IMG/VR virus record: IMGVR_UViG_3300045988_183727
DNA: 64,000 bases
Strand: one strand, 5' to 3'
DNA from: a virus
Positions 8,840 to 60,094 of the stretch are shown here, one piece after another. Positions within the stretch are counted from its first letter, which is position 1; the number at the start of each line of letters is the position of its first letter. The notes under the pieces were generated by a model that ran no database searches, was not told the origin of the DNA, and saw only the letters and a list, made by a program, of their open reading frames with translations. A program made the position numbers and the translations under genes.

Positions 8840-8868
8840 TTGACATTATTTTATGTTCGTGCTAATAT
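8840..8868 (+). promoter_or_regulatory. sigma-A-type promoter (TTGACA, 17-nt spacer, TAATAT); member of a conserved promoter family
   Basis: cttgacattattttatgttcgtgctaatat. Near-identical promoters occur at 17260, 47962 and on the minus strand at 47771-47800. Confidence 0.5.
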
Positions 8869-19717: not shown

Positions 19718-19728
19718 AAAAAAAACAA

Positions 19729-20053
19729 GTACGGACGGTATAACCGGAATTAACGCCTGTGGAGATGCATGGTCGTCGCGGAAGCAGGAATACTCTGTTG
19801 GCTGGCAATCACGTGAGAGGTGACGACCAGCACCTTGGGGGAACTGAATACCTGTGCTGGGTATACACCACCCAGAAATAGCAGGGTACTATACCACAAG
19901 ATGCCGCACGTTGAATTTGAGTGGCGGTATACACCACCCAGAAAAAAACAGGGTACTATACCATCTCATTGCACACTGGCATATACCCGTTATCGTAAAG
20001 GATATGTCACGGTTAGGGGTATACACCACCCCGAAATAACAGGGTTGTATACC
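19729..20053 (+). repeat. R1: ~130-nt conserved structured core plus 3 degenerate 36-nt GTATAC units; abuts the tRNA-Ser 3' end
   Basis: The core gtacggacggtataaccggaattaacgcctgtggagatgcatggtcgtcg...cctgtgctgg recurs at 20125, 50345, 51812 and 53259. Confidence 0.6.
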
Positions 20054-27922: not shown

Positions 27923-29788
27923 TTATGCCACCTTGCTGATGACTTGTGCTGCGTTGGAACGAATTTCGTTCTGTTCAACGGGGTCGTTCGTGCATTTCGA
28001 GATGAGGCACGTGTCAATATACTTTTCAAGATTCGCCAGATAGCGGTCATCACACTGCACGCAGCACACGAGGGATTCGAGCTCACAGATGGTGCAAGAA
28101 CCCTCGGTGATTTCCTTGTCCGCACAGTAGCTGCGAATCTGCTCGTACACATCGTAGAGCGCGTACAGGGTTCTGTCATCGCGACTCCAGCCGGTGTTGT
28201 ATTTGATGCGCTCCAGCATGGCTTTCTTCTCGATTTCCGTACTGTCGAAAATCATGCGGCAGCGACGGAGAACCGACTGGTCAATGGGACGGCAGGAAGC
28301 ATATCCGACGTTATCTGTGAATACCACAACGGCGTCCTTCTGCCGATAGGTAAATCCACCATCTACCAGAGGAATCATAGCTCCCGGCAAATCGTACTGG
28401 TTCAGCGCGACCATAACACCGGAATCCTTGATTCGGCTGACCTCCTGAATCTCGCAGATGTATCCGCGAGAAACAGCCTTCACAAAAGCGGATTCAACCA
28501 CTTTCACGGGGGAAGTGCAGCCGGCACGTGCAACCAACAGCTCGGAATACTTTGCAAAGCACTCCTCGGAGGTAATGCCCGTGCCATCTTCTCCTGTCAT
28601 GTTGTTCCACGCGGATTCGGGGTCGAAGGAAATTTCCTCAAAGGAGGGGAGTTCTCCTCGTGCCGCATCCACAGGATTGCAGGGAACGAACTCGGAAATC
28701 AAGTCCTTTGCCAACATATCAGTATGACAGGTCAGCTCCAAACGGGGGGTGTGCAGGATGCACGCCAACACCTTCGTACCGGTAGACTTGCCGTAACCGG
28801 TAATGCCGCGCCACAGGAAGTTGCGGAACGGAACGCGCATATTAGACGTTGCGACGATTTTATCTGCGATTTCGATTACCTCCGGCTGGACCTTGAAGTC
28901 GTCGTCAAAGGTGGGAATCAGCAGTTCTTCGTCTTGCGTCCACGTATGTGTTTTTGTCCATGCAGCATATCTGAGTTTGGCATCCTTCACGGTCATGCTC
29001 TTTTCAGACGAGCCGGTGCTTGAGGCCATGGTTCCACCGATAATGGTCGGGGAGCCAACGATGACGGTGCCATTAAAGGCTCCACTGTTTACCTTCTGCC
29101 GGGTCAGGGTATCCAGATTGCCGTTCTGGATGTTGAGAGGGATTTTTCCGTCTTCACAACCGTAGTAGAGAATGTCGCTGAATGTGTAGAGGAAGTCTCT
29201 TGCATCAGGAATCTCATCCATATGGTTGCCCCAGTCGGCGGGGTACTTGGCACTCAGGTCAAGGATGTCCGTCTGTACCTGCTTGAGCTCCACATTGTTT
29301 GCGACAACAGCCAGTTCAGGTGCGCCGTAATACGTTGCGAGGGTGAACGGGGTCATCGCAAGGAGAGCACCGCTCAGGTCGAGAGTGTCCGACTCCGAGC
29401 CAATAGACGGGGTTCCCGCCCACTGTCCGGAAGGTGCCGCTGACGCAGCCGCCAGCTTACCTACTGCCGGCGCATTCGTTTGAATGACCGTCTTGTAGGT
29501 GAAAAGATACGTCCTCGATTCCGTGGCGTCTCGATATTCCGCGCTCCACAGGTTATCAGAAACCTGCAAAAGAGCGTAGTCATCGACAAAATTGGGAATT
29601 CCCAGATACGCCAAAAGAGCTCTGGTCGCATAGTTGTGAAGGGTAGAATACCCCTTTGCAGAGGGGCGCTTGGGAGCACTCCATTTGGACACCGTACTTG
29701 TGTTTCTATTGGGAAGCGAGTTCAGCCCGTACGGAAGGGTGCTGATATCGAACCCTTTCTTCCCTCGGAAGAGTACACAGTTTGCCAT
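27923..29788 (-). CDS. AAA+ ATPase (MoxR/CbbQ-like AAA_5 family), partner of the vWA protein
   Basis: Walker A motif GITGYGKSTG. First gene of its operon, downstream of cassette A. Confidence 0.7.
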   Translation of the reverse strand: MANCVLFRGKKGFDISTLPYGLNSLPNRNTSTVSKWSAPKRPSAKGYSTLHNYATRALLAYLGIPNFVDDYALLQVSDNLWSAEYRDATESRTYLFTYKTVIQTNAPAVGKLAAASAAPSGQWAGTPSIGSESDTLDLSGALLAMTPFTLATYYGAPELAVVANNVELKQVQTDILDLSAKYPADWGNHMDEIPDARDFLYTFSDILYYGCEDGKIPLNIQNGNLDTLTRQKVNSGAFNGTVIVGSPTIIGGTMASSTGSSEKSMTVKDAKLRYAAWTKTHTWTQDEELLIPTFDDDFKVQPEVIEIADKIVATSNMRVPFRNFLWRGITGYGKSTGTKVLACILHTPRLELTCHTDMLAKDLISEFVPCNPVDAARGELPSFEEISFDPESAWNNMTGEDGTGITSEECFAKYSELLVARAGCTSPVKVVESAFVKAVSRGYICEIQEVSRIKDSGVMVALNQYDLPGAMIPLVDGGFTYRQKDAVVVFTDNVGYASCRPIDQSVLRRCRMIFDSTEIEKKAMLERIKYNTGWSRDDRTLYALYDVYEQIRSYCADKEITEGSCTICELESLVCCVQCDDRYLANLEKYIDTCLISKCTNDPVEQNEIRSNAAQVISKVA

Positions 29789-29844
29789 GATGTTTTCTCC
29801 TTTCTCCCAGCCTGTGATAAGGACTTACGGGAAACCAAAATAAA

Positions 29845-30036
29845 ATGTATATATAGAAAAAGACAATCACTGCCCGAAAAGGGAAGTGATTGTCTGAATT
29901 TATGATGTGACTTGAAAAACGGAGATAAAACTCCTTATAAAAATATCTTCGTAATTATACTATTATACTACCACGTTTCGCTATTTTGTCAACAGCAGCA
30001 ACGTAAAAAAAGAAGCTCCCGAAGGAGCTTCTTTTG
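29845..30036 (-). promoter_or_regulatory. cassette A: upstream-operon terminator + promoter + GGAGAYAARNCTCC palindrome + leader hairpin with U-run
   Basis: Terminator 30005-30035; -35 tgtcaa 29987-29992; palindrome 29921-29934; leader hairpin gacaatcact...agtgattgtc 29857-29898. Confidence 0.55.
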
Positions 30037-33914: not shown

Positions 33915-34694
33915 TTAGGCTTCGGCGCCGAACACCTTTTTGCAGATAGAGTGAATAGCCACGAACTGTTCCTGAAGCTGTGCCGGCACAAGGGAGATGG
34001 AGAGACCGGCATCACGCCATACACTATGGCCTGCGAATGCTTTGTCCCACAGTTCTCCACGTTCGTGCTGGGCCTCCAAGAGCCTCTCATAGCGTTCTTC
34101 TTCCGTCTTTGCAGCGCCAATGTACTGCCGTGTGTACTCGTTGAAGTCTGAAATATTCATCTCCGTCTGGTCGGTGTACTCAAAGCGGGGATATTGGGAG
34201 TCGATGAAAGGGGCCGCTTCTCTGGTGAGATTGAACCCTTTCATGTAGGTACTGCCATTATCGCCCCTGAGGAACAGCAGTGACGCCTGCCAATCACGGG
34301 AGACGATTTCGTAGATTTCAGTGATAACGTCGAGCAGATTTCTCTTCTGCTCTACTGTCAATGAAATCTTCCGTTTCTGCGCCTCCTTCTGCAGAATCTG
34401 TTCCGCAGAGCTTTTGGCGCTATCCGTCATCGTAAAAGACGGCGTCCAGTCGTACATCAGAACACACTTATGGACGACGTTTGCGGCGATTGAAGCAAAA
34501 ACAGGTCTGAGCTCCTCAATATCCTCTACAGACTTCTTGGCGAAGATGATGGCGAGCTGGCAGAAATCGAGCGAGTTGTAGACAGCGTCCACAAAGGACT
34601 TCTGCTGCACTTCCCGAATCTCACTGCCGAGCTTGACCAACTCCCCGATGTCGGTAGAGTTGATGCGCCAAGCATCAAAGATTTTTGTGCTCAT
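33915..34694 (-). CDS. hypothetical protein
   Basis: Start MSTKIF overlaps the upstream stop (ATGA). Confidence 0.5.
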   Translation of the reverse strand: MSTKIFDAWRINSTDIGELVKLGSEIREVQQKSFVDAVYNSLDFCQLAIIFAKKSVEDIEELRPVFASIAANVVHKCVLMYDWTPSFTMTDSAKSSAEQILQKEAQKRKISLTVEQKRNLLDVITEIYEIVSRDWQASLLFLRGDNGSTYMKGFNLTREAAPFIDSQYPRFEYTDQTEMNISDFNEYTRQYIGAAKTEEERYERLLEAQHERGELWDKAFAGHSVWRDAGLSISLVPAQLQEQFVAIHSICKKVFGAEA

Positions 34695-35059
34695 TTCAGG
34701 CACCCGCCTTCCTTGAGAATGTCCATGACCTTCTCCAACACGGTCAACGGGGCGTTGAAGCCGAAGTCGCCAACGGCTCTGCGAAGAGCCATGAGCAATT
34801 CCGCCTGCCGGTGATAGTCCTTGGCAGCCTGTTCCGTCTGATACAGCCGGTAATCTGTACTCCAGTACATGGAGTTTTGCTGGAAGTAGGGATTTCTGTT
34901 CGCATCTTCGGAAGGAGCCTTGTAGTATCGACAGTCTCTATTGTCTGTCAGCCACTTGGTTCCAACCTTGACCGTGACCTCATCCACCACCTTTCCGTGC
35001 CGCCGTTCGGCATTACTACCGATAATAGGTACGCGGTAGAGTCTCATCTCAGTGGCCAT
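34691..35059 (-). CDS. hypothetical protein, paralog of 35049..35501
   Basis: ORF track; about 80 percent identical N-terminal region. Confidence 0.5.
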   Translation of the reverse strand: MATEMRLYRVPIIGSNAERRHGKVVDEVTVKVGTKWLTDNRDCRYYKAPSEDANRNPYFQQNSMYWSTDYRLYQTEQAAKDYHRQAELLMALRRAVGDFGFNAPLTVLEKVMDILKEGGCLK

Positions 35060-35501
35060 TGTTCTTACTCCTTTCTTCGTCTGTCAGCCCACCATCCACA
35101 GCCATGTCCATCAGCGTATTGAAGACGCTGGTGAGACGCTGTGCGAACGGGGTGTATTTCAGCGTATCCATGACCTTCTCCAGCACAGGCAGGGGAGCGT
35201 TGAAGCCGAAATTGCTCACCGCCCTGCAAAGCGCCACACGCAGTTCCGCTTGCCGAAGGTAATCCTTGGCGGTCTGCTCTGTCTGATACAGTCGGTAGTC
35301 CATGCAGTACATGGTGTTGAGCTGGAAGTAAAGGTTTCGGTTTGCGTCCTCAAGCGGCACCTTGTAGTAGCGACGACCGTTATCGTCCGTCAGCCACTTG
35401 GTTCCGACCTTGACTGTGACCTCATCCACCACTTTTCCACGCTGCCTCTCGGCATTGCTGCCGACAACCGTTACGCGGTAAAGTCTCATCTCAACAGCCA
35501 T
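35049..35501 (-). CDS. hypothetical protein, tandem paralog
   Basis: ORF track; its C-terminal 40 aa are duplicated in 35491..35700. Confidence 0.5.
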   Translation of the reverse strand: MAVEMRLYRVTVVGSNAERQRGKVVDEVTVKVGTKWLTDDNGRRYYKVPLEDANRNLYFQLNTMYCMDYRLYQTEQTAKDYLRQAELRVALCRAVSNFGFNAPLPVLEKVMDTLKYTPFAQRLTSVFNTLMDMAVDGGLTDEERSKNNGH

Positions 35502-35700
35502 TGTTCTTGCTCCTTTCTTCGTCCGTCAGCCCGCCATCCACAGCCATGTCCATCAGTGTATTGATGACGCTGGTTAGACGCTGTGCGAACGGGGTGTAGG
35601 GGTTCGACAACTCACTGCGGCGCTCCATCAGAATCGCCATAGCAAACTTAGCGTCATTGACGCTCTTCAGCTCTTCGATTGTCCAGCGATGCTTACTCAT
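35491..35700 (-). CDS. hypothetical small protein
   Basis: ORF track; carries a copy of the YTPFAQRLTSV.NTLMDMAVDGGLTDEERSKNNG segment. Confidence 0.4.
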   Translation of the reverse strand: MSKHRWTIEELKSVNDAKFAMAILMERRSELSNPYTPFAQRLTSVINTLMDMAVDGGLTDEERSKNNGC

Positions 35701-36020: not shown

Positions 36021-36197
36021 CTAAATCTGCTTGTAAGGCCCAAGTGTGATAGACAGGTTGTAGATATAATTACCACAACGCACACATTCGTCGTTCTTTC
36101 CCCACAAGCCGCTTGCTTTCATACCGCGCACGCTGCCTGTATAATGGATAGACGGGTGTGTATCGCACTCGTGCTGGGTAAGCTCCTTTTGTTTCAT
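36021..36197 (-). CDS. 58-aa Cys/His small protein, first gene downstream of cassette B
   Basis: ATG after gaaaggagtaaacgc on the minus strand; C.THPS.H...C..C motifs. Not in the ORF track because it is under 60 aa. Confidence 0.35.
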   Translation of the reverse strand: MKQKELTQHECDTHPSIHYTGSVRGMKASGLWGKNDECVRCGNYIYNLSITLGPYKQI

Positions 36198-36227
36198 GCG
36201 TTTACTCCTTTCGTTTTTACTTGTTCT

Positions 36228-36414
36228 GAATATATAAAAAGACAGTCGTTCCCAAATGAGAACAACTGTCTTGAATATGATGATGTGACTGAAAACGGAG
36301 ATAAATCTCCTTATAAAAATATCTTCGTAATTATACTACTATACTACCACAATTCTTTATAATGTCAACGGAAACGGTACAAAAAAAGAAGCCCCCGAAA
36401 GAGCTTCTTTTTAA
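36228..36414 (-). promoter_or_regulatory. cassette B: terminator + promoter + palindrome + leader hairpin with U-run
   Basis: Terminator 36381-36412; -35 tgtcaa 36363-36368; ggagataaatctcc 36297-36310; hairpin 36236-36274. Confidence 0.55.
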
Positions 36415-36421
36415 GTTAAGG

Positions 36422-36925
36422 TTATTCGTTCTTTGCAGTCTTATCGGCGATACCATCGAAGATGTTGCCAACAACACGGATTTCGGTGCCGAGCAGCTTA
36501 CAAAACGGAACAAAATGTCCGTTGTCGTAAGCCTCGTCCATCAGCTCTGCTGCCGTTTTTGTTTTCAAAGACTCACTAACCAGCAGGCCAAAAGAACCAT
36601 TTCGGAACACAACCGTGTTCTCGTTGAAGAGAGGAGTGGGGCGGAATCCTTCAAAGGTCTCCACGATGTCTCCTTCGAACACCTTTGCGCCGTCCTTGTC
36701 GATGATGCCGGTGTACTGCGTTACGGTATCCGCGTAGACACCGCAAACGTCGCGGCTTTCAGCCGTGTCGGACAAGTACGTGTAGATGATGGCGAAGTCC
36801 TTCGGGCTATTATGGGGACGTGCGGCGCCCCCGTAGACCCAAATTCCCGGCAGGGGTGCTCCGGTTGCCATGCGAACTTTCTCGCCATGCCGCCGAACCT
36901 GACCACGAAACAGGATTTCTTTCAT
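36422..36925 (-). CDS. YopX-family phage protein
   Basis: N-terminal MKEILFRGQ matches the characteristic YopX start. Confidence 0.7.
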   Translation of the reverse strand: MKEILFRGQVRRHGEKVRMATGAPLPGIWVYGGAARPHNSPKDFAIIYTYLSDTAESRDVCGVYADTVTQYTGIIDKDGAKVFEGDIVETFEGFRPTPLFNENTVVFRNGSFGLLVSESLKTKTAAELMDEAYDNGHFVPFCKLLGTEIRVVGNIFDGIADKTAKNE

Positions 36926-36946
36926 TGTTTTTTTCTCCTTTCATTT

Positions 36947-37246
36947 TCAATGCAGTCCGTGGAGCTTTTTCCACTGGGCCTTGTCCATCCAAGGTCCGTC
37001 AAAGCTGTCGTCCACACACTCTGTTCTGAGACAGTTAGGGCAGACGAGACAGTCCACAGCCCGCCGGACACGACCGGTCTTGAACCGCACACCATGTTGG
37101 ATGATTTCTTCCTCCTCCACGAAGTAGCTCGGTTCAAGCTCGCAGCCACAGGTGCCGCAGATGCCAAACGGGTTTGCATTGGACTCGTAGGTGCCGTTCT
37201 GTTTTTGGATATTCTCCTGAATCACTGCATGGTAATCCGTCGCCAT
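36947..37246 (-). CDS. zinc-finger small protein
   Basis: CGTCGC...CLVCPNC motifs. Confidence 0.5.
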   Translation of the reverse strand: MATDYHAVIQENIQKQNGTYESNANPFGICGTCGCELEPSYFVEEEEIIQHGVRFKTGRVRRAVDCLVCPNCLRTECVDDSFDGPWMDKAQWKKLHGLH

Positions 37247-37983
37247 CAGAACTTCACCTCCTCAAATTCAATGACCCATACCCACGGGTTTCCGGCCCAC
37301 TTTGACAGGGCCTTGTGTTCGGGAATCGTGCTGTCCCACAGCTCGATAAACTTCTCCTGAAGGGACATGGTGTTCTCGCCGGAGGTACTGTCACAGGTGA
37401 TGCCCTCCTTAGTGAAGTCCTCGTCCTTCATGTCATTCAAATGTTCCAACCGCACATCCGTCACACGCAGGAAAATGCGTGCCGCCTCTTTGGGCATATG
37501 AATGGACGGTGTCCAGTGAATGAGGGAACTCACCTCAGGGGAGTTTTTCAAATCCTCATCCGAATAATCGGCCTTATAGAGCCAGCGGTTCTCGGCGCAG
37601 GCACAGGTCGTTTCGCGAACATACAGGACGTCTCCCTTGTCAAACGGAGCACAGAAGCTGCGAATGACGGTGTTCTCATCAGCGAAAGCGGCCACGAGAC
37701 GTCCGTCTCCGTCGCGATACAGTCCATCCACTTTCTTTCCCGCGAAGTGAAACGCACCACGGCGTGTTACCATCTTGCGCCCCTCGCGGATGGCACGTAC
37801 CATCTCGCCGTTGAACAGGATAGGCTTCGGCTTCTTGTCCTTGAAGATGTCGGGGTCAAAATGGATGCCGGCTTTCTCGCGCAGTTCCTTGCAACGAGAG
37901 CCACGATAGATGTCTGTGTCGCACTCTTTGACAGGACAATGTGAGAGGCAGATTCGCCGCTCATAAGGTTCCTTTCTGGGCAT
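37246..37983 (-). CDS. ASCH-domain protein
   Basis: KPILFNGEMVRAIREGRKMVTRR resembles the ASCH/PUA-like N-terminal motif. Confidence 0.55.
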   Translation of the reverse strand: MPRKEPYERRICLSHCPVKECDTDIYRGSRCKELREKAGIHFDPDIFKDKKPKPILFNGEMVRAIREGRKMVTRRGAFHFAGKKVDGLYRDGDGRLVAAFADENTVIRSFCAPFDKGDVLYVRETTCACAENRWLYKADYSDEDLKNSPEVSSLIHWTPSIHMPKEAARIFLRVTDVRLEHLNDMKDEDFTKEGITCDSTSGENTMSLQEKFIELWDSTIPEHKALSKWAGNPWVWVIEFEEVKF

Positions 37984-38011
37984 ATGTTTTTTCTCCTTTC
38001 TTTTCCGGGGG

Positions 38012-38464
38012 TCACTCGTATTCCTGACAACAAAGGTCGTAGACCTTATGCAGCGCAGCTAACGCCGCCTCAGGAATATCCTGAGTGTCCATATCAAACC
38101 ATTCGCCGAGCAATCCGGTAACATCTCCAAGAAACAGGAACTCGTCGAACACTTCCGACGGCGTACCGGAACCTTTTTTGCTTACCTTGCGCCGCTTATG
38201 TGGTGCAGTTCCGCGACAGGCATCCAGTGCGTCCTGCAGGAGCGATATCGCACCCTTGGGAATTTCACCGGTATCCATTTTCAGCCAATTCGCCAGAGTC
38301 TCGATAACATCATCGAGGAACACATAATTGCACTCGCAGATAATTCTCGCCATCTGCAAGTGTCGAATTGCGTCCGTTGGGATGTCGTTAATGTCACACT
38401 CGGTGAGTTGTCTCTTCAGGTTCTTTACAACCTCATCGCGGGACAAAACCTTGTTTCTTCCCAT
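38012..38464 (-). CDS. hypothetical protein with an internal duplication
   Basis: ORF track; two similar segments, LANWLKMDTGEIP... and LLGEWFDMDTQDIP.... Confidence 0.5.
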   Translation of the reverse strand: MGRNKVLSRDEVVKNLKRQLTECDINDIPTDAIRHLQMARIICECNYVFLDDVIETLANWLKMDTGEIPKGAISLLQDALDACRGTAPHKRRKVSKKGSGTPSEVFDEFLFLGDVTGLLGEWFDMDTQDIPEAALAALHKVYDLCCQEYE

Positions 38465-38491
38465 GTTGTCTCCTTTCTTTTTTTGCGGATT

Positions 38492-39043
38492 TCAACTGCT
38501 CTGCCTCAGCGTATCAGGCACGGCACCGAAGCTCTGCGCGGCTGGGTAGGCGGGAGGGAAGGGGATAGCCCCTCCTCTCGCTACCTGAGCCACCACGAGG
38601 GTGCTAATGCCGCCAGAGGGCGTTTTGTATTGCTGAACGCTTGGCGTGTAGAGAAACCCATCTACCGCTTGTCTCACGGTCATTGTGGGGTATTTTGGCG
38701 CCCGCCAACGATGCTCCTTAGAATAGTAGATTTCCCTGACCCGACACGTTGCAACTGTGACGGGAATGAGGGGATTGTCTACCGTATGTTCACACACGAT
38801 GGCGATAGATGTCTTTCCAATTCTGGAAGCATCCTCCACCATGCGCTGGAGCGCGAGTCTCTGACCATAAGGCATTGCGGCATTACGATGCTTCACCTCA
38901 AAGAAAACATACCCCTTGTCGTGATACTCAATGAGTCCGTCGATGTCGGTAGGATAACAGTTACCCTTGTTTTCAATAGTCATGCCCGTGAAGCTGACGA
39001 GCTGTTTCATCCTTGCGGGAAATCTAATGTAGTCCTTCCTCAC
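38492..39043 (-). CDS. hypothetical protein
   Basis: GTG start 6 nt after aaaggagg; avoids overlap with the upstream gene. Confidence 0.45.
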   Translation of the reverse strand: MRKDYIRFPARMKQLVSFTGMTIENKGNCYPTDIDGLIEYHDKGYVFFEVKHRNAAMPYGQRLALQRMVEDASRIGKTSIAIVCEHTVDNPLIPVTVATCRVREIYYSKEHRWRAPKYPTMTVRQAVDGFLYTPSVQQYKTPSGGISTLVVAQVARGGAIPFPPAYPAAQSFGAVPDTLRQSS

Positions 39044-39071
39044 GGGAGCCTCCTTTCTGCAGGCATCCCCC

Positions 39072-39404
39072 TCAGCGGGGGATGCCTTTGCCGTTTTTGA
39101 GCATGGAAATGACTTTTGCGGCCAAGAAATCGTCGGCCACAAACTGGTTATAGCCGTTTTTCAGACCGTTGCTGGAGAAATCCTCTGTGTCCTTGGCATA
39201 GCGGCACATGGATTTGTCGGAAATAGGTCCATAGCAAGAGTGCTCGGTGGTTACATAGACGCAACTCTCTCTGCAAGTCACGAAGCCAGAGCAGCCGCGC
39301 TTCTGTCCGTTGACTGTGATGTTCTTCAGGTGCGTGGTAATGTCCATGCCCATCTGTTCTGCCAAAGAGGTAAGTCCGTTTTTCAGCTTTACAGAAAGCA
39401 ACAT
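39072..39404 (-). CDS. hypothetical protein
   Basis: ATG (MLLSVK) after aaaggcgg; a hairpin overlaps its stop. Confidence 0.45.
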   Translation of the reverse strand: MLLSVKLKNGLTSLAEQMGMDITTHLKNITVNGQKRGCSGFVTCRESCVYVTTEHSCYGPISDKSMCRYAKDTEDFSSNGLKNGYNQFVADDFLAAKVISMLKNGKGIPR

Positions 39405-39406
39405 TC

Positions 39407-40159
39407 TTACACCGCCTTTCTTTCTACCCAGACATCGCCCAACTTGGCGCACTCGCCGTGGTAAGGGCAGTCGTGATAGGTTTCGCAACCCTCATCAACG
39501 AAGGTCTGGCAGGTGCCACAGTCCAAATTGTGATGCAGAAGACGCTGGATAACATCCCGCGCATTTTCGGTCTCTACCGCGAGGTAGGAAAAAGCTCTCG
39601 CCTTGACGCTTGCATCGTACTCATCCGTGTAGTAGAGGGAAGACGCACAGAGAACCTTTGCGCCGAACACACGGCGGCACTCCTCATCGGAGAGCATTTC
39701 ACCGGCAAACGGGAAAAGACCGCGTCTGCCTCTGAGCTGGTTGCTGACGTGTGTGTGCGCGTTCTTTGCCAACTTAACGCCCTCACGAGCCTCATCCAGT
39801 GTGTCGAAGGACAACGCACACACATCCACAAGAGAACCTTCGCCGATAGGGGAGTGGTTCACAAAAAGCATCGCGTATCTTCTGCTGGGAAGGGTTGCAG
39901 TTCTCGCTGCATCCTCGCCTTCGAGACACACGTAACGCGCCACTTTGTCGTCCCACACATACTTCTCACAGGAGGTGCAGGTGTTCTCTGCCTTATCACA
40001 TCCGGATTTCGACGCAACGACCTTCAGCTCGGCTGCTTTTTTTTCTGCCTCGCACTTATCCACAGCGGCAAAGCACACTTTTCGTCCCTTTTCCTCATCG
40101 AAACGATAGTGCTCACATAACGCACAGGAACCAGCAGGCTTTTCACAGATATATGCCAT
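39407..40159 (-). CDS. Cys-rich hypothetical protein
   Basis: ATG (MAYICEKP) after ggagaaaaat; many CxxC pairs. First gene downstream of cassette C. Confidence 0.5.
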   Translation of the reverse strand: MAYICEKPAGSCALCEHYRFDEEKGRKVCFAAVDKCEAEKKAAELKVVASKSGCDKAENTCTSCEKYVWDDKVARYVCLEGEDAARTATLPSRRYAMLFVNHSPIGEGSLVDVCALSFDTLDEAREGVKLAKNAHTHVSNQLRGRRGLFPFAGEMLSDEECRRVFGAKVLCASSLYYTDEYDASVKARAFSYLAVETENARDVIQRLLHHNLDCGTCQTFVDEGCETYHDCPYHGECAKLGDVWVERKAV

Positions 40160-40214
40160 ATTTTTCTCCTTTCTCCCAGCCTGTGTTAAGGTCTTATGGG
40201 AACAAAAATGTAGT

Positions 40215-40402
40215 GAATATATAAAAAGACAGTCGTTCTCAAAAGAGAACAACTGTCTTGAATGTGATGATGTGACTGAAAACGGAGACAAAGCTCCTTA
40301 TAAAAATATCTTCGTAATTATACTACTATACTACCACATTTCCTTATAATGTCAACGGTTTCGACGCAAAAGAAAAGAGCCGCACAGCGGCTCTTTTCTT
40401 TA
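40215..40402 (-). promoter_or_regulatory. cassette C: terminator + promoter + palindrome + leader hairpin
   Basis: Terminator 40367-40402; -35 40350-40355; ggagacaaagctcc 40284-40297; hairpin 40224-40262. Confidence 0.55.
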
Positions 40403-41388: not shown

Positions 41389-41658
41389 TTACATCTCGCC
41401 ATCCTCGGCAGCGGTTATAATACCGAATCTGAGGTTGTTGTTGATGTCGTAGATACTTAATCCGCTATCAAAGTCCTTGCGGAGCTGCGTCGCAGCGGCC
41501 TCTACGGAGTCTTCGCCGTACTCAAACGTCTCGGACTCGACGCAGGTTGCCACAAGCTCCTTCAGCTTTGCGCGGGAAGTCGTCGCAGAAACCAGACGCA
41601 TAGAGTCTGTTGCTTTCCAAGCGTCACAGGCAAACACGATGAAGATAGGATTACTCAT
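41389..41658 (-). CDS. hypothetical protein (89 aa)
   Basis: ATG (MSNPIFIV) after gaaaggagcaagccgaaa. Confidence 0.4.
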   Translation of the reverse strand: MSNPIFIVFACDAWKATDSMRLVSATTSRAKLKELVATCVESETFEYGEDSVEAAATQLRKDFDSGLSIYDINNNLRFGIITAAEDGEM

Positions 41659-42229
41659 TTTCGGCTTGCTCCTTTCTTCTTCCAACGGTGGCTGCGGGGT
41701 ACGGTGTGGCCCGCTTGTTGTTGCTGTCCATGATTCGCATAACATGGACAAGCATCTCGGAATATGCCCTGTGCATGGTTTCATACCGCGCACGCCATGT
41801 ATTATCATCATTGTCGTTCACGCGAGCACTCAGCCCCATGCTGTAGTACAGCGCGGCGTCGATGTCTACCAGCTCCGCTTCAGTCAGGTGGCAGATATAG
41901 GCTCCCAGCTCATTGACAGAAACTGCCATCGGCTGCTCGCACAGTGCTGTGCTGGGGCGGCTCGTGCTCGTGATGAGTACATGGGAGGGCTGCTGCATCT
42001 TTGGAGATGATGTCGTAAATACGACCTCCACTACACTGCTGTAGCGGTTCAGGTCATCCGAAGATACAACGATTGCGGGACGATGCCCTCTGATAACAGA
42101 GCTATTGGAAGGATGTCCGTCTTTATCGCGGAACTGGCTTCCTTCCGGGGCCCAAGGGGAAAAGATTTCGATTTCTTTCGCATTGACCCAAAAAACATCG
42201 CCCCTGCGGATGTTTCCATTTCTACCCAT
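41651..42229 (-). CDS. PemK/MazF-family toxin-like endoribonuclease with a C-terminal extension
   Basis: RGDVFWVN...RGHRPAIVVSSDDLNRYSSVVEVVFTTS matches the MazF/PemK core. Confidence 0.6.
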   Translation of the reverse strand: MGRNGNIRRGDVFWVNAKEIEIFSPWAPEGSQFRDKDGHPSNSSVIRGHRPAIVVSSDDLNRYSSVVEVVFTTSSPKMQQPSHVLITSTSRPSTALCEQPMAVSVNELGAYICHLTEAELVDIDAALYYSMGLSARVNDNDDNTWRARYETMHRAYSEMLVHVMRIMDSNNKRATPYPAATVGRRKEQAENE

Positions 42230-42437
42230 AGATTCTTGTCTCCTTTCCTTCAGAATTGGTTACACACGACGGAATGCCGAAAAAAGACAGAACCGCTTTA
42301 AGCGGCTCTGTCTCCATGCAGTCGATATGACACTGTTTGTTTTCGTAGGGTGCCTCGACAAATTCTTCGCCAACCTCAATGGGTTCGTGGCAAATGCAGC
42401 ATTCGCCGGCGTAACGAATTTCCTTTTTTGCTTTCAC
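42222..42437 (-). CDS. zinc-finger small protein (possible antitoxin partner)
   Basis: Overlaps the mazF-like start by 8 nt; CCICHE...CHIDC motifs. Confidence 0.4.
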   Translation of the reverse strand: MKAKKEIRYAGECCICHEPIEVGEEFVEAPYENKQCHIDCMETEPLKAVLSFFGIPSCVTNSEGKETRIYG

Positions 42438-42951: not shown

Positions 42952-43217
42952 TGCACTTCACCTCCCTGATACGTCGGGCGGCTGCGTCTGTTACGGAACG
43001 GAGGCATCACCGGTGCGGTGTAGCTGGTCAGCTCACCCGTCATTTTGACAGGCACACACTGGAGCAATCCGCGCTGTTTTCGATACTGGTGAGCCAAGTT
43101 GTTGCGAGCCTGTTTCTCAGAAACCGCCATAGTCGTCCCGCCCCACTTATTTGTGGTAATGTCGTCATAGACACGAACGGGTCCGAGATAGCTGAAAACC
43201 ATTTTTGCCTGTGCCAT
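42948..43217 (-). CDS. hypothetical protein, first gene downstream of cassette D
   Basis: ORF track; RBS ggagaaaacac. Confidence 0.4.
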   Translation of the reverse strand: MAQAKMVFSYLGPVRVYDDITTNKWGGTTMAVSEKQARNNLAHQYRKQRGLLQCVPVKMTGELTSYTAPVMPPFRNRRSRPTYQGGEVQ

Positions 43218-43249
43218 TGTGTTTTCTCCTTTCTTATTGTGTTGTAATG

Positions 43250-43440
43250 TAAAAAAATATATAAAAAGACAGCTATCCCTGTCTTGGGATAACTGTCTTG
43301 AATACTTGGTGTGACTGGAAGCGGAGATAAGTCTCCTTATAAAAATATCTTCGTAATTATACTATTATACTACCACAATTATTTATAATGTCAACAATGG
43401 CAGAGAAAAAAGAGGCGGCTTTCGCCTGCCTCTTTTTTTA
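43250..43440 (-). promoter_or_regulatory. cassette D: terminator + promoter + palindrome + leader hairpin
   Basis: Terminator 43405-43439; -35 43389-43394; ggagataagtctcc 43323-43336; hairpin 43264-43300. Confidence 0.55.
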
Positions 43441-47770: not shown

Positions 47771-47800
47771 ATTATAAACACGAACATAAAATTTTGTCAA
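47771..47800 (-). promoter_or_regulatory. minus-strand promoter of the conserved family, upstream of recG
   Basis: On the minus strand: cttgacaaaattttatgttcgtgtttataat. Confidence 0.4.
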
Positions 47801-47961: not shown

Positions 47962-47990
47962 TTGACATTTTTATATGTTCGTGTTAGTAT
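47962..47990 (+). promoter_or_regulatory. promoter of the conserved family
   Basis: cttgacatttttatatgttcgtgttagtat. Confidence 0.45.
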
Positions 47991-47996
47991 AACAGC

Positions 47997-48107
47997 GTGG
48001 ACAGGGCAAGAAAGGCTCGTTCGAAGGGCTCGTGCCTAAAATGACAATATTCTTGCGATTGTAAGAATAAGCGCCTAAATTGCCCGTCCCGTTTTCTTCT
48101 TTCTTTA
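47997..48107 (+). ncRNA. candidate ~110-nt structured small RNA (promoter to U-tract)
   Basis: The closing stem ggacagggcaa / ttgcccgtcc encloses internal hairpins and is followed by cgttttcttctttcttt. No credible ORF. Confidence 0.35.
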
Positions 48108-48484
48108 ATTACACTCATAAGCACAATAAAGTCAGCTCCCTGAGGGAAGTGTGCGGGAGTTGCTTCGACTTTCGCGTTGTTCTCCATGCGGGGAGGTTCT
48201 GGCGGTTCGAGTCCGCACGACGCGCCTTCTGTTTTCGCTGCTTCTATCTTCACCTCCGTCTTTTTAACGAGCAGCGGACACAGAAACATCTCTCAATATG
48301 ATAGCGTAGCATAACTGGTAATGCCGTACCTCTCTCACAGGTAACGATATGTTGGTTCAACTCCAGCCGCTATTGCCAGCCGGCGTTCTACCCACCCCGC
48401 CGACATCAACTCTCTTCGGCGCTGGCGGCCTCCGTGCAGACGGGATTACACGTGATAAGCGGAGGCTGCCAGCACCACCAAAAT

Positions 48485-48867: not shown

Positions 48868-49229
48868 CTTTATCTGCTTATTTGTCCTGTGTTTTTCGGA
48901 CAACATCGGTGAGCGCAAAAGTCGCCTGAAGCGTGAGAAGCGAGCTGCCTGCATCTGTTTTGCGGGCGGTGGCGTGATAAGGGTGAAACTCTGCGCTTTC
49001 AGTAGCCGTAAGCAGGTGAGCAAAAGTCTCTGCGAACGCCTGCATGGTTCGCGGGACAAGGGAAGCCGGAAAAATAAGTAAACGCGGGCCGAGCGCAGAG
49101 GTTGTTGGCGTATTCCAGACGTGGGTGCTGCCTTTTATGCTGTGCTTGTTTGCGTGGGGTCCGGTGTTCTCGCAGTCTGGATGGTTGCTGCGAGAGGTGC
49201 CAAAACTTATTGCGAAAGGACGGAGTTCT

Positions 49230-50288
49230 ATGCCAACTACATTTCAAGCGTTTAAGTATCGCATTTACCCGACTGATGAGCAGGTCGAAATCATTGAAAA
49301 GACTTTCAAGTGCTGCCGGTTTGTGTGGAACCATTTCCTTGAGCGAACCTCCAAAATCTATGACCGTCGGCAGGAAAAGATGACGACCTTCGACTGTATG
49401 AAGGTTCTCACGGAGATGCGGGAGCGCTGGCCTTGGCTTGCGGACTGCGGCTGTACGGCAGAGAGATATGCCATCATTGATTTGTTTGAGGCGCGAAAGG
49501 CGTTCTTCCGCCGCATTAAAGCGGGGGAGAAGCCCGGTTATCCCAAATTTAAGGGCGCGTCCCATCCGACACAGAGTTTTACGACCGCTGGTACTATCTA
49601 TGTGACGGACGATTACATTCAGGTTCCGTTTGGAGGACAGTATCAGAAAATCAACAAGCTCAGGCGAGGGACGGGGCGCCCCATCGAAGGGTCTCCCCGC
49701 GAGGTCACTATTTCTCGGTCTGCTACCGGAAAATACTGGGCATCTGTCTGCTGTAAAGTAGAGCGAGACACGCTGCCTATTGTGGACGGCGAGGTGGGAA
49801 TCAGTCTCGGCCTGAAGGAGTTGGCTATTGACAGCAACGGCGTTCACTATGAGAACCCGAAGCATCTGAGCAAGTCTGCAAAGCGGTTGGCACGTGAGCA
49901 GCGGCGTCTATCCCGCAAGAAGAAGGGCTCTGTCAACTACGAGAAGCAGCGGCGCAAGGTAGCCGGCGTCCATGAGCATATTGCCAATCAGCGCAATGAC
50001 TACCGGCATAAAATCAGCCGTGAACTTGTCAACGCAAACCAGCTTATTGCCGTTGAGAAGGTGGCCGTTAAGCCCTTAGTTGAGGGCAATGAGCAGGCTA
50101 AAAGCATCCTCGATGCCGGCTGGTCTGAACTTACCGGTATGATAAAGTATAAGGCGGACTGGGCTGGACGCACTCTGGTGGACGTAGATACCGCCACCGT
50201 AGCACCGGAAGCCAAGCATGATGAGGCACTGGCACAGGTCGTGCTGTCCGAAGGTCAGCGCATGGCTTCCGAGCAGAAGCCTGCCTAA
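49230..50288 (+). CDS. TnpB-like (IS605 OrfB family) protein, probably nuclease-dead and C-terminally truncated
   Basis: N-terminal FKYRIYPTDEQ. RuvC-I reads GISLGLKELAIDSNG, so Ser replaces the catalytic Asp. RuvC-II IAVEKV. ILDAGWSELTGMIKYKADWAGRTLVDVD. There is no zinc finger or RuvC-III; an unrelated 30-aa tail follows. Confidence 0.75.
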   Translation: MPTTFQAFKYRIYPTDEQVEIIEKTFKCCRFVWNHFLERTSKIYDRRQEKMTTFDCMKVLTEMRERWPWLADCGCTAERYAIIDLFEARKAFFRRIKAGEKPGYPKFKGASHPTQSFTTAGTIYVTDDYIQVPFGGQYQKINKLRRGTGRPIEGSPREVTISRSATGKYWASVCCKVERDTLPIVDGEVGISLGLKELAIDSNGVHYENPKHLSKSAKRLAREQRRLSRKKKGSVNYEKQRRKVAGVHEHIANQRNDYRHKISRELVNANQLIAVEKVAVKPLVEGNEQAKSILDAGWSELTGMIKYKADWAGRTLVDVDTATVAPEAKHDEALAQVVLSEGQRMASEQKPA

Positions 50289-50303: not shown

Positions 50304-50563
50304 GTGTGCAATGATTGCACACATTGCCAAGGAAATAAAAACGAGTACGGACGGTATAGCCGGAATTAACGCCTGTGGAGATGCATGGTCGTCGTGGAAG
50401 CAGGAATACTCTGTTGGCTGGTAGTCACGTGAGAGGTGGCACCAGCGCTTTGGGGAACTGAATACCTGTGCTGGGTATACACCACCCGGAAATAACAGGG
50501 TTGTATACCAATTCATGGCGTCTCCTTTTGGTATACACCACCCGGAAATAACAGGGTTTTACC
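50304..50563 (+). repeat. R3: palindrome gtgtgcaatgattgcacac + ~130-nt core + 2 GTATAC units, directly downstream of the TnpB-like gene
   Basis: Palindrome 50304-50322; core 50345-50474. Confidence 0.6.
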
Positions 50564-50663
50564 ATTCGTAATTATAGTTCTTCCCTCCGCTGTGTGGAGC
50601 GTTTTGTCGAAATGACAAAACATTCCTCTTAAATTCTTAAAAACAAGAAAGGAAATAAAGAAT

Positions 50664-51792: not shown

Positions 51793-51811
51793 GCTAAATA
51801 CCTAAAAGCAA

Positions 51812-52155
51812 GTACGGACGGTATAACCGGAATTAACGCCTGTGGAGATGCATGGTCATCGTGGAAGCAGGAATGCTCTGTTAGCTGGTTTTCATGTGAG
51901 AGATGATGCCAGCAGCTAAGGGAACTGAATATGCCTGTGTTGGGTGTATGAGGCCCTGAAATGACAGGGGTGTATACCATATAATCTGTCGCTTGAGGAG
52001 ACAGGCGTATAGAGCCCAGAAATAACAGGGTTGTATACCCCTTAACCGCGCTCCAACTTTCAATCCTAAGGTGTATAAGGGCCTGAAATAACGGGGTGAT
52101 ACCTCAGTTATTCCTTTTAGGTACATAACGGGCTAAAACAACAGGGTAGTGTACC
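51812..52155 (+). repeat. R4: core + 4 GTATAC units
   Basis: The core carries compensatory substitutions in its terminal stem (ccagca/tgttgg). Confidence 0.6.
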
Positions 52156-52221
52156 AGATTATATATGATATGGGTGTAGGTATTCGTTTAGGACAACTTG
52201 AAGTTGAAAGGAGGTCTCTGG

Positions 52222-52743: not shown

Positions 52744-53252
52744 TGTATATGTCTCAGAAAGAGTTCAACGCTATGATGAAGAAAAACCCCCGCCTCCGTG
52801 TTCACGGTGCAAATAACAATACCCGCGAACATCGCTCCAAAGCGAATAAGGCGGCAAAATATAGAAATGTAAAGGTCTACGAGTATGCCGATGGGCTGGC
52901 TTTTTTCGGTAAGCCCCGCAATAATGGTGAAATCCCTATCGCTGTCTTTGACAGCAAGAAGGAGTACCACCGCTGGAAAGAGCTTCAGATTTTGGAGCGC
53001 GGCGGACATATCCACGACCTTCGCCGGCAGGTGCCTTTGACCATCATTACCGAGTTCGAGTATCGTGGTCAGAAGGTCTCCGGTATTACTTACAAAGCCG
53101 ACGCCGTCTATGTGCGCGACGGCAAGTGTGTGGTAGAGGACGTGAAGCCCTTCGATACCACAACGCAGAAGTATCGAACTACAAAGGATTTCAACCTCAA
53201 GTGGAAGCTGCTCAAGGCTGAATATCCTACTTGGTCTTTTGAAATCTATTAA
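52743..53252 (+). CDS. DUF1064-like phage protein
   Basis: FDSKKEYHRWKELQILERGG block; the start overlaps the upstream stop (TAATG). Confidence 0.55.
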   Translation: MYMSQKEFNAMMKKNPRLRVHGANNNTREHRSKANKAAKYRNVKVYEYADGLAFFGKPRNNGEIPIAVFDSKKEYHRWKELQILERGGHIHDLRRQVPLTIITEFEYRGQKVSGITYKADAVYVRDGKCVVEDVKPFDTTTQKYRTTKDFNLKWKLLKAEYPTWSFEIY

Positions 53253-53258
53253 AAACGA

Positions 53259-53533
53259 GTACGGATGGTATAACCGGAATTAACGCCTGTGGAGATGCAT
53301 GGTCGTCGTGGAAGCAGGAATACTCTGTTGGCTGGTAATCATGTGAGAGATGATACCGGCACCTTTGGGGAACTGAATATGCCTGTGTCGGGTATATAGA
53401 ACCCTGAAACGACAGGGTTGTGTATCACAGAATAACTGCGGCAGCGGCATATATGGCTCTGAAACAACAGGGTTGTATACCGCATAAAAAAGGCTATGGT
53501 GTGTAATACCCTGAAATAACAAGGTTGTGTACC
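53259..53533 (+). repeat. R5: core + 3 GTATAC units
   Basis: Terminal stem ccggca/tgtcgg, compensatory relative to R1. Confidence 0.6.
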
Positions 53534-53714
53534 CCATAACATATTGTTTCTGAAAGTGGTGGACGGCAAGTGGAAAATCTGAGCAACATCCGGTGGCGAG
53601 TTCATCTGTAAGACCTGCTACGGTGGAGGGAGCGGTATTTTCCTTGCCTACTTCGACCTCGTGCAGTGAGTGATTGCAGGGCTTTCGACGGTTCCGCAAA
53701 TTTGTTCGTTCCAA

Positions 53715-53797
53715 GAACTTGACAAAATATCGAATTATAGTAGTATAGAATTATAAGGAAGGACAGTCTAACACAGACTGTCCTTCCGCTTTTTTAT
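53715..53797 (+). promoter_or_regulatory. cassette E (plus strand): promoter + leader hairpin with U-run
   Basis: ttgaca 53719-53724; tagtagtatagaattataagga is shared with cassettes A-D; hairpin aggacagtct aacac agactgtcct followed by gctttttt. Confidence 0.45.
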
Positions 53798-58359: not shown

Positions 58360-59937
58360 ATGCCTACAGAAAGAAAGAAGAAAACAACAAAAGAAGAAAA
58401 CGCAAAAAATAACTCAACAAAAAACACAATAAAAAAACCAAGAAACTCAACAAGTAACACGAAAAGCAAGAAAGAAAGCAAGTCTCTTTTGGGGTTAAAG
58501 GACCTGATGGAAGATACGTCTCCAGAAAAAGTCGTCGGCTGTTATGTTCGTGTATCTACCGATGCACAGGCGGAGCAGGGATATTCTATACCTGACCAAA
58601 CAGCCAAATTGCAGGCCTTTTGTACCGTAAAAGGCTGGGAGAACGCGAAATTCTACACGGACCCCGGATTCAGCGGCAGCAACTTAAATCGACCGGCAAT
58701 GCAGGAAATGATATCCGATGCGATGGAAGGGAAGCTGAAGGCGGTTGTCGTCTTCAAGCTGGACCGTCTCTCCAGAAGTCAGAAGGATACTCTTTATTTA
58801 ATTGAGGATGTGTTTCTTCCGAACGAAGTGGATTTTGTAAGCATTTCCGAGGCCCTTGACACTACCACTCCATATGGACGAGCGATGATAGGTATTTTGA
58901 GCGTCTTCGCCCAGTTGGAACGCGAGAATATCTATATGCGAACCCGTATTGGAATGATGGGTCGTGTAAGCGCGGGGTATTGGCGTGGCGGCGGAAACGT
59001 TCCGTTTGGCTATGATTATGACAAGACAAGCAAATCCCTTATCCCAAATGCTGACGCGCCAAAAGTGCCACAGGCTTACGACCTCTACATCAAGGGCTAT
59101 AGTTGCCAGAAAATTGCGGATATGCTCGGACTAAGTAGCGAACAGCTCGTGAGGAATATTCTCACCAAGCGCACATATTGCGGCTACATCAACTACAAAG
59201 GCAAAGACTACAAGGGTTTCCACGAGCCTTTGATTGATGAAGAGCGGTTCATGCTCGTGGCTGCAGAAATGGAACGCCGTGGGAAGGAAAACCTCGCAGT
59301 CTGCGGCAACAATAAATATTATCTTCTTACCGGGCTTGTTTTCTGCGGAGATTGTGGCGCCAGAATGCGGTACATGAAGTGGGGGAAGTATATCCGTATC
59401 GTCTGCTACTCGCACACGTGTAAAAAGAACATGGTTAAGGACCCCGATTGTCCAAACAAGGGCGTTCGCGCAGATGAACTTGAGAAGGTTGTTATCTCAA
59501 AACTTTTTGACATTGGTACTGACATTTCTCTCGACGATTTTGACGACACCCACGTGCCTGCAAGTGCAGCAGAAATCCTGACGAACCGGATAGATGAGCT
59601 GAAGGAGTCTCTCAGGCGCCTATATGGGCTCTATGCCGACATCGGAGACCCCATGGTGTACGAGCGCATTGAGGATGTGCGAGGACAGCTCCACGTATTG
59701 CAGAGACAGCTTGCAAGCGAGGAAACGCAGAAACTCAAGGAAGAGCACATCAACTACGTCCGTGAGAAAATTCAGACTATTGGAGACCTCTGGCCCCATC
59801 TTACTCCTATGGAGCGCCAAACTCTTGTTCGTGATTGTGTTGAGAAGGTTATTTTGCATCACAACGGACGTGTTGAGGTTTACTACACTTTCCATACTGA
59901 GAAAGATAGTAAAATTCTCAAAAGGAAAGGCGCATAA
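58360..59937 (+). CDS. large serine recombinase (phage integrase type)
   Basis: YVRVSTDAQ with the catalytic Ser, KLDRLSRS, a recombinase domain and a C-terminal zinc ribbon. The Lys-rich 49-aa N-terminal extension may not be translated; an alternative ATG lies at 58507. Confidence 0.8.
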   Translation: MPTERKKKTTKEENAKNNSTKNTIKKPRNSTSNTKSKKESKSLLGLKDLMEDTSPEKVVGCYVRVSTDAQAEQGYSIPDQTAKLQAFCTVKGWENAKFYTDPGFSGSNLNRPAMQEMISDAMEGKLKAVVVFKLDRLSRSQKDTLYLIEDVFLPNEVDFVSISEALDTTTPYGRAMIGILSVFAQLERENIYMRTRIGMMGRVSAGYWRGGGNVPFGYDYDKTSKSLIPNADAPKVPQAYDLYIKGYSCQKIADMLGLSSEQLVRNILTKRTYCGYINYKGKDYKGFHEPLIDEERFMLVAAEMERRGKENLAVCGNNKYYLLTGLVFCGDCGARMRYMKWGKYIRIVCYSHTCKKNMVKDPDCPNKGVRADELEKVVISKLFDIGTDISLDDFDDTHVPASAAEILTNRIDELKESLRRLYGLYADIGDPMVYERIEDVRGQLHVLQRQLASEETQKLKEEHINYVREKIQTIGDLWPHLTPMERQTLVRDCVEKVILHHNGRVEVYYTFHTEKDSKILKRKGA

Positions 59938-59944
59938 AAATTAG

Positions 59945-59976
59945 AAACGCGCCTCTTCTGAGGCGCGTTTGCTTTT
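59945..59976 (+). terminator. rho-independent terminator
   Basis: aaacgcgcctc ttctg aggcgcgttt gctttt. Confidence 0.5.
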
Positions 59977-60094
59977 CTAAAAACTAAAATCCAATTCCAG
60001 CAAAAGGGTCGTTTTTTCTCCTTTCCAACACTATGCCGATGGTGTTGTGAAGATGAAAAAACTCTGAGGCTGGTATTCCGAGGAGCGTGTTTTC

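Follow-up and report, generated by a model that had tools for sequence, protein, structure and literature searches.

A repeated promoter-leader-terminator cassette as the probable common control region of many operons in a large integrating mobile element

At the λ PR′-qut-tR′ region, Q loads on RNA polymerase at a sigma-dependent pause caused by a -10-like hexamer, and the CUP repeats of IncN plasmids are operators repeated at establishment-gene promoters, with no conserved leader terminator. In the Reg576 regulon of p576, repeated operators are common to several establishment-gene promoters and allow transient de-repression, with DNA operators only (PMC6294495). In SPβ, about ten promoter regions share SPBRE, a 15-bp operator bound by the master repressor MrpR (PMC10516654). 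Here, we analysed a 64,000-nucleotide (nt) stretch of DNA filed as IMG/VR virus record IMGVR_UViG_3300045988_183727 (hereafter the window, numbered from its first letter), in which a cassette of roughly 200 bases, composed of a promoter, a conserved transcribed leader and a terminator-like hairpin, recurs ahead of operons. The cassette is best explained as a control region shared by the operons of a single regulon in a large, integrating mobile element, and many operons probably answer to one switch.

A repeat search of the window returned four minus-strand copies (family D1; 29846-30011, 36222-36387, 40209-40374 and 43248-43413), and five copies, four on the minus and one on the plus strand, aligned with one another (alignment A1). 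The core 20-mer TGGTAGTATARTAGTATAAT had four matches in the window compared with 0.00 expected from 100 shuffles. A covariance model built from related copies found exactly four full copies, all on the minus strand and scoring 105-121 bits (29857-29961, 36236-36337, 40223-40324 and 43263-43363). Repeat search, alignment and covariance model agreed on the four places that the original prediction, made from the letters of this DNA, had named. In transcript direction, the order is a hairpin with a T-run, TTGACA, a 16-nt spacer, TGgTAGTAT, GTAGTATARTAGTATAAT, a GGAG..CTCC hairpin (P1), a CAGTCAC.. linker and a 13-15 bp hairpin followed by U5 (P2). We call the minus-strand copies c1 (29786-30035, upstream of an AAA_5 / DUF3232 / VWA operon), c2 (36195-36412), c3 (40157-40401) and c4 (43215-43439, upstream of an operon with a MazF-like gene). 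In c2, which was recovered by all three approaches and scored 121 bits, the cassette extends from the terminator of the preceding operon (AAAAAGAAGC..GCTTCTTTTT with a T-run, 36383-36412, inverted-repeat pair I4) to the start of the first gene, with its ribosome-binding site AGGAG and its ATG (36195-36209). A strong hairpin with a T-run ends the operon 5' of each cassette, and its sequence differs from copy to copy.

The four cassettes divide the minus-strand block into five operons, as had been proposed, and the full leader is present in four of them. The exception is the RecG-like operon (47725-43438, minus strand), which encodes a RecG-like helicase and proteins of 322 and 390 amino acids (aa) and is headed by a promoter without the cassette leader, a perfect TTGACA-18-TATAAT (47771-47800, minus strand). 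The shortened plus-strand copy c5 (53719-53790) proved real, although only its promoter, second hexamer and hairpin are kept: TTGACA-16-TAGTAT-AGAAT-TATAAG is followed directly by a 12-bp hairpin (GGAAGGACAGTC/GACTGTCCTTCC) and U6, without P1 and linker, and this form was retained in three related contigs. With four full leaders and one shortened copy, the description of five operons with identical leader attenuators was overstated.

For promoter anatomy, cassettes were parsed from the downstream P1 hairpin, which kept the sample free of bias from the promoter itself. TTGACA (c2: 36363-36368), exactly 16 nt and TGG-TAGTAT (c2: 36341-36349; TAATAT once) were present in all 83 distinct cassettes parsed; the two boxes had thus been described correctly, whereas the spacer is 16 nt only, not 16-17 nt. 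The promoters of c1, c3 and c4 occupy 29965-29992, 40328-40355 and 43367-43394, respectively. The five bases after the -10 were variable, with eight forms, and were followed by TATAAT in all 83 cassettes (c2: 36330-36335); two further real copies had TATGAT at this place. The first hexamer, with its upstream TG and correct spacing, is the real -10, and the second would span about -1 to +5. Judged from these features, the cassette promoter is of the strong sigma-A-type extended -10 class. The second hexamer is a candidate sigma-dependent pause element or operator part; being an invariant TATAAT near the start site, it matches in sequence the -10-like pause element of λ-type Q antitermination (qut), which favors a Q-like route.

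P2 (36236-36270 in c2; with its U-run at 29857-29894 in c1, 40223-40257 in c3 and 43263-43297 in c4) lies about 65 nt downstream of the predicted 5' end. The base of its stem, GACAG/CUGUC, is conserved and the interior is variable; U5-8 and TATATAT follow. Across 61 distinct sequences, 97.3% of the P2 cells pair, changes on both sides were found in 9 of 13 pairs, and none of 500 shuffles matched the observed covariation values. For the 18 pairs of P1 and P2 in the model-based alignment of these sequences, 97.5% of cells pair compared with 88.7% in shuffles, double changes occur in 10 of the 18 pairs, and no observed measure was reached in 500 shuffles; sliding the 3' partners by 1-3 columns lowered pairing to 42-65%. 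This alignment was fitted to the structure, which favours pairing; the MAFFT-based result agrees. Additionally, RNAalifold on 45 sequences gave P2 as the sole predicted structure, with 14 pairs, 8 of which had compensatory double changes. Orthologues of the most divergent paralogue from two clades have stems that differ at several positions and still pair (GAGACUGUUAUC/GAUAGCGGUCUC versus GAGACCAUCAUC/GAUGAUGGUCUC). Because the arms change yet stay complementary, P2 is selected as RNA (or single-strand) pairing and not as a protein operator. The covariation first noticed in the window therefore holds over the 61 distinct copies, in which the arms show compensatory changes rather than the conserved sequence of an operator.

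Together with its U-run, P2 takes the form of an intrinsic terminator, as originally proposed. The U5-8 run was present in all 115 copies aligned by the covariance-model search (61 distinct), and the stem of 13-15 bp, the G-C pairs, the short loop and the U-run beginning 0-2 nt after the stem are those of a predicted intrinsic terminator. In the terminator scan, the leader hairpins of c2, c3 and c4 ranked top with 14-15 pairs; P2 of c1, which has an interior mismatch, was absent from the list yet folds as a hairpin with U5. The whole leader folds at about -27 to -32 kcal/mol. When leaders were folded without the 3' arm (n=61), the 5' arm had no consistent partner, being fully free in 19 of 61 and having only 3 nt paired in 22 of 61. 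There is no built-in antiterminator fold, and therefore the P2 terminator should form by default. A classical attenuator or riboswitch was rejected, as no alternative fold, no Rfam aptamer at the gathering score and no leader open reading frame (ORF) were found; Rfam searches of the whole window at the gathering score and of two cassettes at E<=10 returned only tRNAs and sub-threshold terminator-like matches. Separately, another terminator-like hairpin, GACAGAGCCGC-TTAAA-GCGGTTCTGTC with U6, is located at 42280-42312 (minus strand), and its stem base is identical to that of P2. This hairpin is contained in a 71-aa CxxC ORF that immediately precedes the MazF-like toxin gene (41651-42229), and it may attenuate transcription internally, before the toxin gene.

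The leader is A/U-rich and its first 50 or so transcribed bases are almost invariant. Its 5' part, TACGAAG(A/C)TATTTTTATAA(A), hardly varies, the most divergent paralogue included, and in c2 the corresponding initial stretch, TACGAAGATATTTTTATAA, occupies 36311-36329. P1 (36297-36310 in c2, 29921-29934 in c1, 40284-40297 in c3 and 43323-43336 in c4) has the form GGAGA-loop-TCTCC with GUUUU after it (in c2, a TTTA loop and then GTTTTC). The GGAG of an AAGGAG does lie within the P1 stem, as the original prediction of a hidden Shine-Dalgarno (SD)-like sequence had it, but covariation support for the hairpin is weak: three of the five pairs never vary, and the fifth, the sole pair with compensatory change, goes from A-U to C-G in three distinct sequences. 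An extended P1 suggested by single-sequence folding (GAAGAU/GUUUUC) was discarded because variants break the pairing without compensation. The linker (GTTTTCAGTCACATCATCATATTCAA at 36271-36296 in c2) measures 25-30 nt (..AGTCAC..ATTCAA) and is non-coding, since copies differ by indels of 1-2 nt and a start codon is absent; a leader peptide was ruled out for the same reasons, the indels not being multiples of 3. Most copies carry another module downstream of P2, named P3 (UUCCC-RUAAGNCC-loop-AGGC-N-GGGAG), directly 5' of the ribosome-binding site GAAAGGAGA. In the window, P3 was found as repeat D15 in c1 (TTCCCGTAAGTCCTTATCACAGGCTGGGAG, 29804-29833) and c3 (40173-40202). Its outer stem covaries in three forms, CCC/GGG, GUGC/GCAC and GUCUU/AAGAC, around a conserved RUAAGUCC; inspection by eye ruled out a K-turn, the G·A/A·G pairs not being in place. 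P3 is conserved downstream of P2, and therefore read-through transcripts are also under selection.

An exact 41-mer of the cassette matched 71 IMG/VR contig stretches. Looser patterns revealed a second clade, clade B, with ..GTAGTATAGAATTATAATTACGAAGCTATTTTTATAAAGGAGATTATCTCC..; one of them, TTGACA-N13-15-TGGTAGTATA, gave many chance matches but exposed this clade. From the IMG/VR loci, 185 copies were collected, 96 of them unique. The search of related elements that had been suggested was successful: better-covered related contigs (130-192 kb) contain 9-13 copies each, all co-directional and spread over >100 kb. Within one genome, conservation is near-complete from the -35 to about +50, declines in the linker and inside P2, and recovers at CUGUC-U-run-TATATAT. 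Between clades, DNA identity is 60-62% for the flanking 322-aa and 390-aa genes, 80% for the orthologous cassette and 87% for its -14..+47 part. The most change-resistant part is TGGTAGTAT-N5-TATAATTACGAAGNTAT, the DNA surrounding the start site, a region on which repressors and factors loaded there act. It is unchanged in the most divergent paralogue (L091 2531-2635, L314 474-578, L079 2862-2966 and L176 9090-9195; upstream of a gene starting MNNGYY), whose P1 is GGAGC/GCTCC and whose P2 and P3 stems are wholly different, and this paralogue helps to define the minimal conserved core. An 18-mer scan of genome contigs was too loose, all 120 loci returned being chance matches without the cassette, and megablast of 15 kb of the minus-strand block against phage and plasmid collections gave no match. 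The 390-aa protein adjoining c4 is identical in sequence on 978 contigs (1646 blocks) of public assemblies, indicating that the element is very common.

We tentatively favor, with slightly less than even confidence, a default-on leader terminator with factor-dependent read-through, shared by all cassettes. Host RNA polymerase would start at all cassette promoters together, probably once an element-encoded repressor leaves the invariant -14..+17 stretch. Such a conserved stretch, as in an SPBRE-like regulon, is present in sequence, and by analogy the cassette promoters probably carry a common operator. Polymerase would stop at P2 by default and release a leader RNA of about 100 nt, and full-length mRNA would depend on a factor acting in trans, whose gene would lie elsewhere in the element or in the host. 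This factor might modify polymerase near the start site, with TATAAT at -1..+5 giving a sigma-dependent pause as at λ PR′, or it might attach to the conserved linker and the base of the stem and so act as a local block on P2. In this account, toxic or early genes would be kept under a second lock by the attenuator. Processive antitermination of the Q/N type is possible; given the strong terminators at every operon end, we would place a local or terminator-selective version somewhat above a fully processive one, and the operon-end terminators together with fresh promoters fit local or no read-through somewhat better. It seems rather unlikely that the cassette marks an antitermination regulon of a kind not described before, in which a single factor loaded at the start-site region (TATAAT, leader and P1) frees all 9-13 default-terminated operons, or that the leader instead is an abundant multi-copy small RNA with its own function.

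Several points weigh against the favored account. Most of the evidence for sigma-dependent pausing comes from E. coli and lambdoid phages, not from Firmicutes. Gene conversion among the copies might account for part of the high conservation of promoter and leader, and both termination at P2 and its regulation are predictions. c5 keeps promoter and terminator without the leader, where a leader-RNA-dependent factor could not act. The regulator search compared about 70 window ORFs with Pfam (30 also with PHROGs) and used precomputed Pfam hits of neighbouring genes, and gene inspection covered about 60 kb of the roughly 163-kb element; neither these scans nor PDB searches of four candidates gave a candidate antiterminator or repressor. 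The four candidates were the 322-aa, 390-aa, 236-aa helix-turn-helix and 101-aa ORFs, for which PDB sequence searches returned nothing informative; for the 322-aa and 390-aa proteins, searches for homologues found only 3-6 relatives, all hypothetical. No Q-family protein was seen among the window ORFs or the neighbours' hits, and PF17362 (ConAn1) was absent from all scanned ORFs. The module-wide processive antiterminator of the Q/qut or put kind in the original prediction is unproven; no known antiterminator domain or Rfam family appeared in the scans.

P2 might alternatively be a passive attenuator or insulator, leaky and constitutive, that lowers the output of a strong promoter and shields the operon from read-through together with the operon-end terminator, with regulation solely by a repressor at -14..+17. 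Each cassette is indeed bracketed by two terminators, neither an antiterminator gene or RNA motif nor an alternative fold turned up in the scans, c5 consists of promoter and hairpin alone, and Tn916 employs a terminator as an insulator (PMC11658703). On the other hand, the stem of 13-15 bp and its U5-8 are predicted to terminate efficiently and would leave the downstream genes very poorly expressed, a passive terminator does not explain the near-invariance of 50 transcribed bases including P1, and the conserved P3 implies that read-through mRNA matters; we regard this alternative as rather unlikely. The leader could also act mainly in mRNA stability or processing, termination being minor; AAGGAG would then bind ribosomes as a stabiliser of the STAB-SD type, and P2 would be a hairpin that protects the mRNA or is of the RNase III type. 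Bacillus has such 5' SD-like stabilisers in the cryIIIA STAB-SD and the phage SP82 leader, and the A/U-rich cassette leader has an invariant AAGGAG some 25 nt from its predicted 5' end, which no start codon follows. However, the U-run of all 115 aligned copies would be needless in a stabiliser, P1 partly sequesters the GGAG and P2 lies some 65 nt from the 5' end, which makes this role improbable.

Alternatively, the terminated leader of about 100 nt could itself be the product, a multi-copy trans-acting small RNA that might, for instance, serve to decoy the ribosome or some host factor, with expression of the downstream genes being secondary. Copies from both clades hardly differ in their 5' 50 nt, the strong promoter and efficient terminator suit such a design, and P1 pairs an SD-like with an anti-SD-like sequence. 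We nevertheless judge this quite improbable, as each copy stands directly upstream of an operon without another promoter, P3 and the ribosome-binding site belong to the same transcript, and c5 lacks the conserved RNA part. Finally, co-directional operons with establishment-type genes (SSB, primase-like, toxin, and topoisomerase III nearby) recall the single-stranded-DNA promoters (Frpo/ssi type) of conjugative leading regions, which work on the strand that enters the cell. The -35 and -10 boxes are not covered by any inverted repeat from which a folded single strand could rebuild the promoter, and they form a normal double-strand promoter with 16-nt spacing; this reading was ruled out at the level of promoter sequence, and we give it hardly any probability.

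The cassettes also serve as recombination points. In the metagenome contig NODE_32 (L358 14257-14401), the whole c3 operon, corresponding to about 36415-40214 of the window with eight genes including YopX, is missing, and the junction is a single hybrid cassette with the c3 spacer and the c2 leader and downstream gene. One IMG/VR contig has a similar hybrid, in which a c3-type promoter, spacer and P1 are joined to a c2-type downstream leader and gene. The hybrid sequence indicates that cassette-to-cassette recombination deleted the c3 operon in NODE_32. Because they are near-identical, the cassettes are sites at which recombination adds or removes whole operons, and whatever the mechanism of the leader, they explain the swapping of whole operons in and out of these elements.

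The homology of the window to two long metagenome contigs ends at 60034, which is 97 nt past the stop of a large serine recombinase gene (58360-59937). Beyond this point, both contigs continue with a truncated sigma-70 region-2 ORF and then with chromosomal genes (class I tRNA synthetase, holA and comEC), indicating that the element integrates into a sigma-factor gene, in a manner resembling the insertion of SPβ and the skin element into a gene. An attP-like junction was observed at 59937-60095 of the window (break at 60034) and at 12668-12964 of L361. The element ends are about 163 kb apart in NODE_32 of ERZ1310032 according to coordinate offsets (about 61.3-224.1 kb of that contig), and the window looks like the joined (circular) form. 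The viral filing in IMG/VR, five tRNA genes, YopX, DUF1064, YqaJ and SSB point to a phage, whereas a conjugative-plasmid-type topoisomerase III, sortase-like genes, a large repeated-domain adhesin and a DUF3854 primase-like gene point away from one; the parts of the element that were read showed no genes for capsid, tail or type IV secretion. Genes behind the cassettes encode mostly small proteins without assigned function. The recognisable ones (SSB, a primase-like protein, YhcG nuclease, MazF-like toxin, YopX and an AAA/VWA pair) make this gene set one of early or establishment type. In the minus-strand block, 34691-35059 and 35049-35501 encode tandem paralogous small proteins (repeats D4/D11, 34713-35598), one of which had a weak sub-threshold match to a phage ProQ C-terminal-like domain; their copy number differs among related contigs.

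Other features of the window were noted alongside the cassettes. A second conserved promoter type, TTGACATT.TTT.ATGTTCGTG.TA.TAT, is present at 8840-8868 and 47962-47990 (both plus strand), has no leader cassette, precedes the topoisomerase III gene and the tRNA cluster, respectively, and may mark a different expression class. About 300 nt (47990-48300, plus strand) separate the promoter at 47962 from tRNA-Glu; the sole long ORF there looks spurious, a tRNA T-arm-like GGTTCGAGTCC lies in the 48205-48215 region, and neither ARAGORN nor Rfam made a call across 47990-48300. In addition, a conserved unit of about 145 nt has four plus-strand copies (19718-19862, 50334-50476, 51801-51945 and 53248-53393), one of which abuts tRNA-Ser and another of which lies 48 nt past a TnpB gene (49044-50288). 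The unit folds well (consensus -34.6 kcal/mol; 35 pairs, one compensatory), has no Rfam match and is followed each time by 2-4 repeats of a 36-42 nt palindrome, GGTATACACCACCCGGAAATAACAGGGTTGTATACC (e.g., 50474-50571, 51943-52161 and 53391-53539). It may represent omega-RNA, IS200/IS605 transposon-end debris or RNA of another kind.

Should the leader terminator prove to be regulated, a single factor would control some ten operons in a very common element, operons whose early or establishment genes are mostly uncharacterised. A leader-reporter fusion would then be a handle on a new antiterminator or RNA-binding regulator in Gram-positive bacteria. Moreover, the covariance model (R1) provides a sequence and structure signature for annotating the regulon in metagenomes. 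To our knowledge, no system has been described in which 9-13 operons each have the same promoter-proximal terminator leader, and we know of essentially no characterised promoter-proximal Q/N-type control in Gram-positive bacteria.

Compared with the closest described systems, the cassette resembles the PeSLs of T4-like phages, the SPBRE regulon and λ PR′-tR′ yet belongs to none of them, because there is no sequence relation, no antiterminator domain was found in the scans and an extended leader structure is lacking. As at λ PR′-tR′, a strong promoter is combined with a -10-like initial transcribed hexamer and a nearby terminator that would yield a short leader unless polymerase is modified; λ has one such promoter compared with 9-13 here, the host here is of Firmicute type, and the scans held no Q-family protein. 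The conserved single-stranded stretch followed by P1 resembles the boxA-boxB layout of N/nut in outline only; small arginine-rich proteins of the N kind are, as far as we know, not recognisable by sequence. Like conAn of pLS20 (PMC8191782) and canT of Tn916 (PMC11658703), the cassette belongs to a Gram-positive mobile element that pairs terminators with a leader-encoded element, an arrangement by which read-through would be confined to the element's own transcripts. Those are single sites heading one long operon, with structured regions of 260-600 bp and, for ConAn1, PF17362; neither such a region nor this domain was found here, and the cassette leader of about 100 nt has only a 5-bp hairpin (P1) upstream of its terminator, unlike put, EAR, conAn2 and canT. 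SPβ shares with our element a large size, a serine recombinase and many promoters with a conserved element. SPBRE is a 15-bp DNA motif, whereas the cassette conserves about 80 bp and an RNA hairpin, its repressor binding is predicted, and no MrpR-like protein was seen in the scans. The PeSLs (PMC2839356, PMC4122927) are, like the cassette, small composite terminator/promoter motifs repeated between genes of large mobile genomes; both flank blocks of mostly unknown genes and both are homologous recombination points for indels, the motif here likewise standing at gene-block borders with indel junctions within it. There is no sequence relation between the two and the host group differs: the element has a serine recombinase and topoisomerase III, with no T4-like genes seen in the scans, and the cassette promoter is a Gram-positive-type TTGACA-16-TGnTAGTAT without the T4 early consensus. 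To the terminator/promoter motif, the cassette adds a conserved transcribed leader of about 100 nt and its own downstream terminator, which are undescribed for PeSLs.

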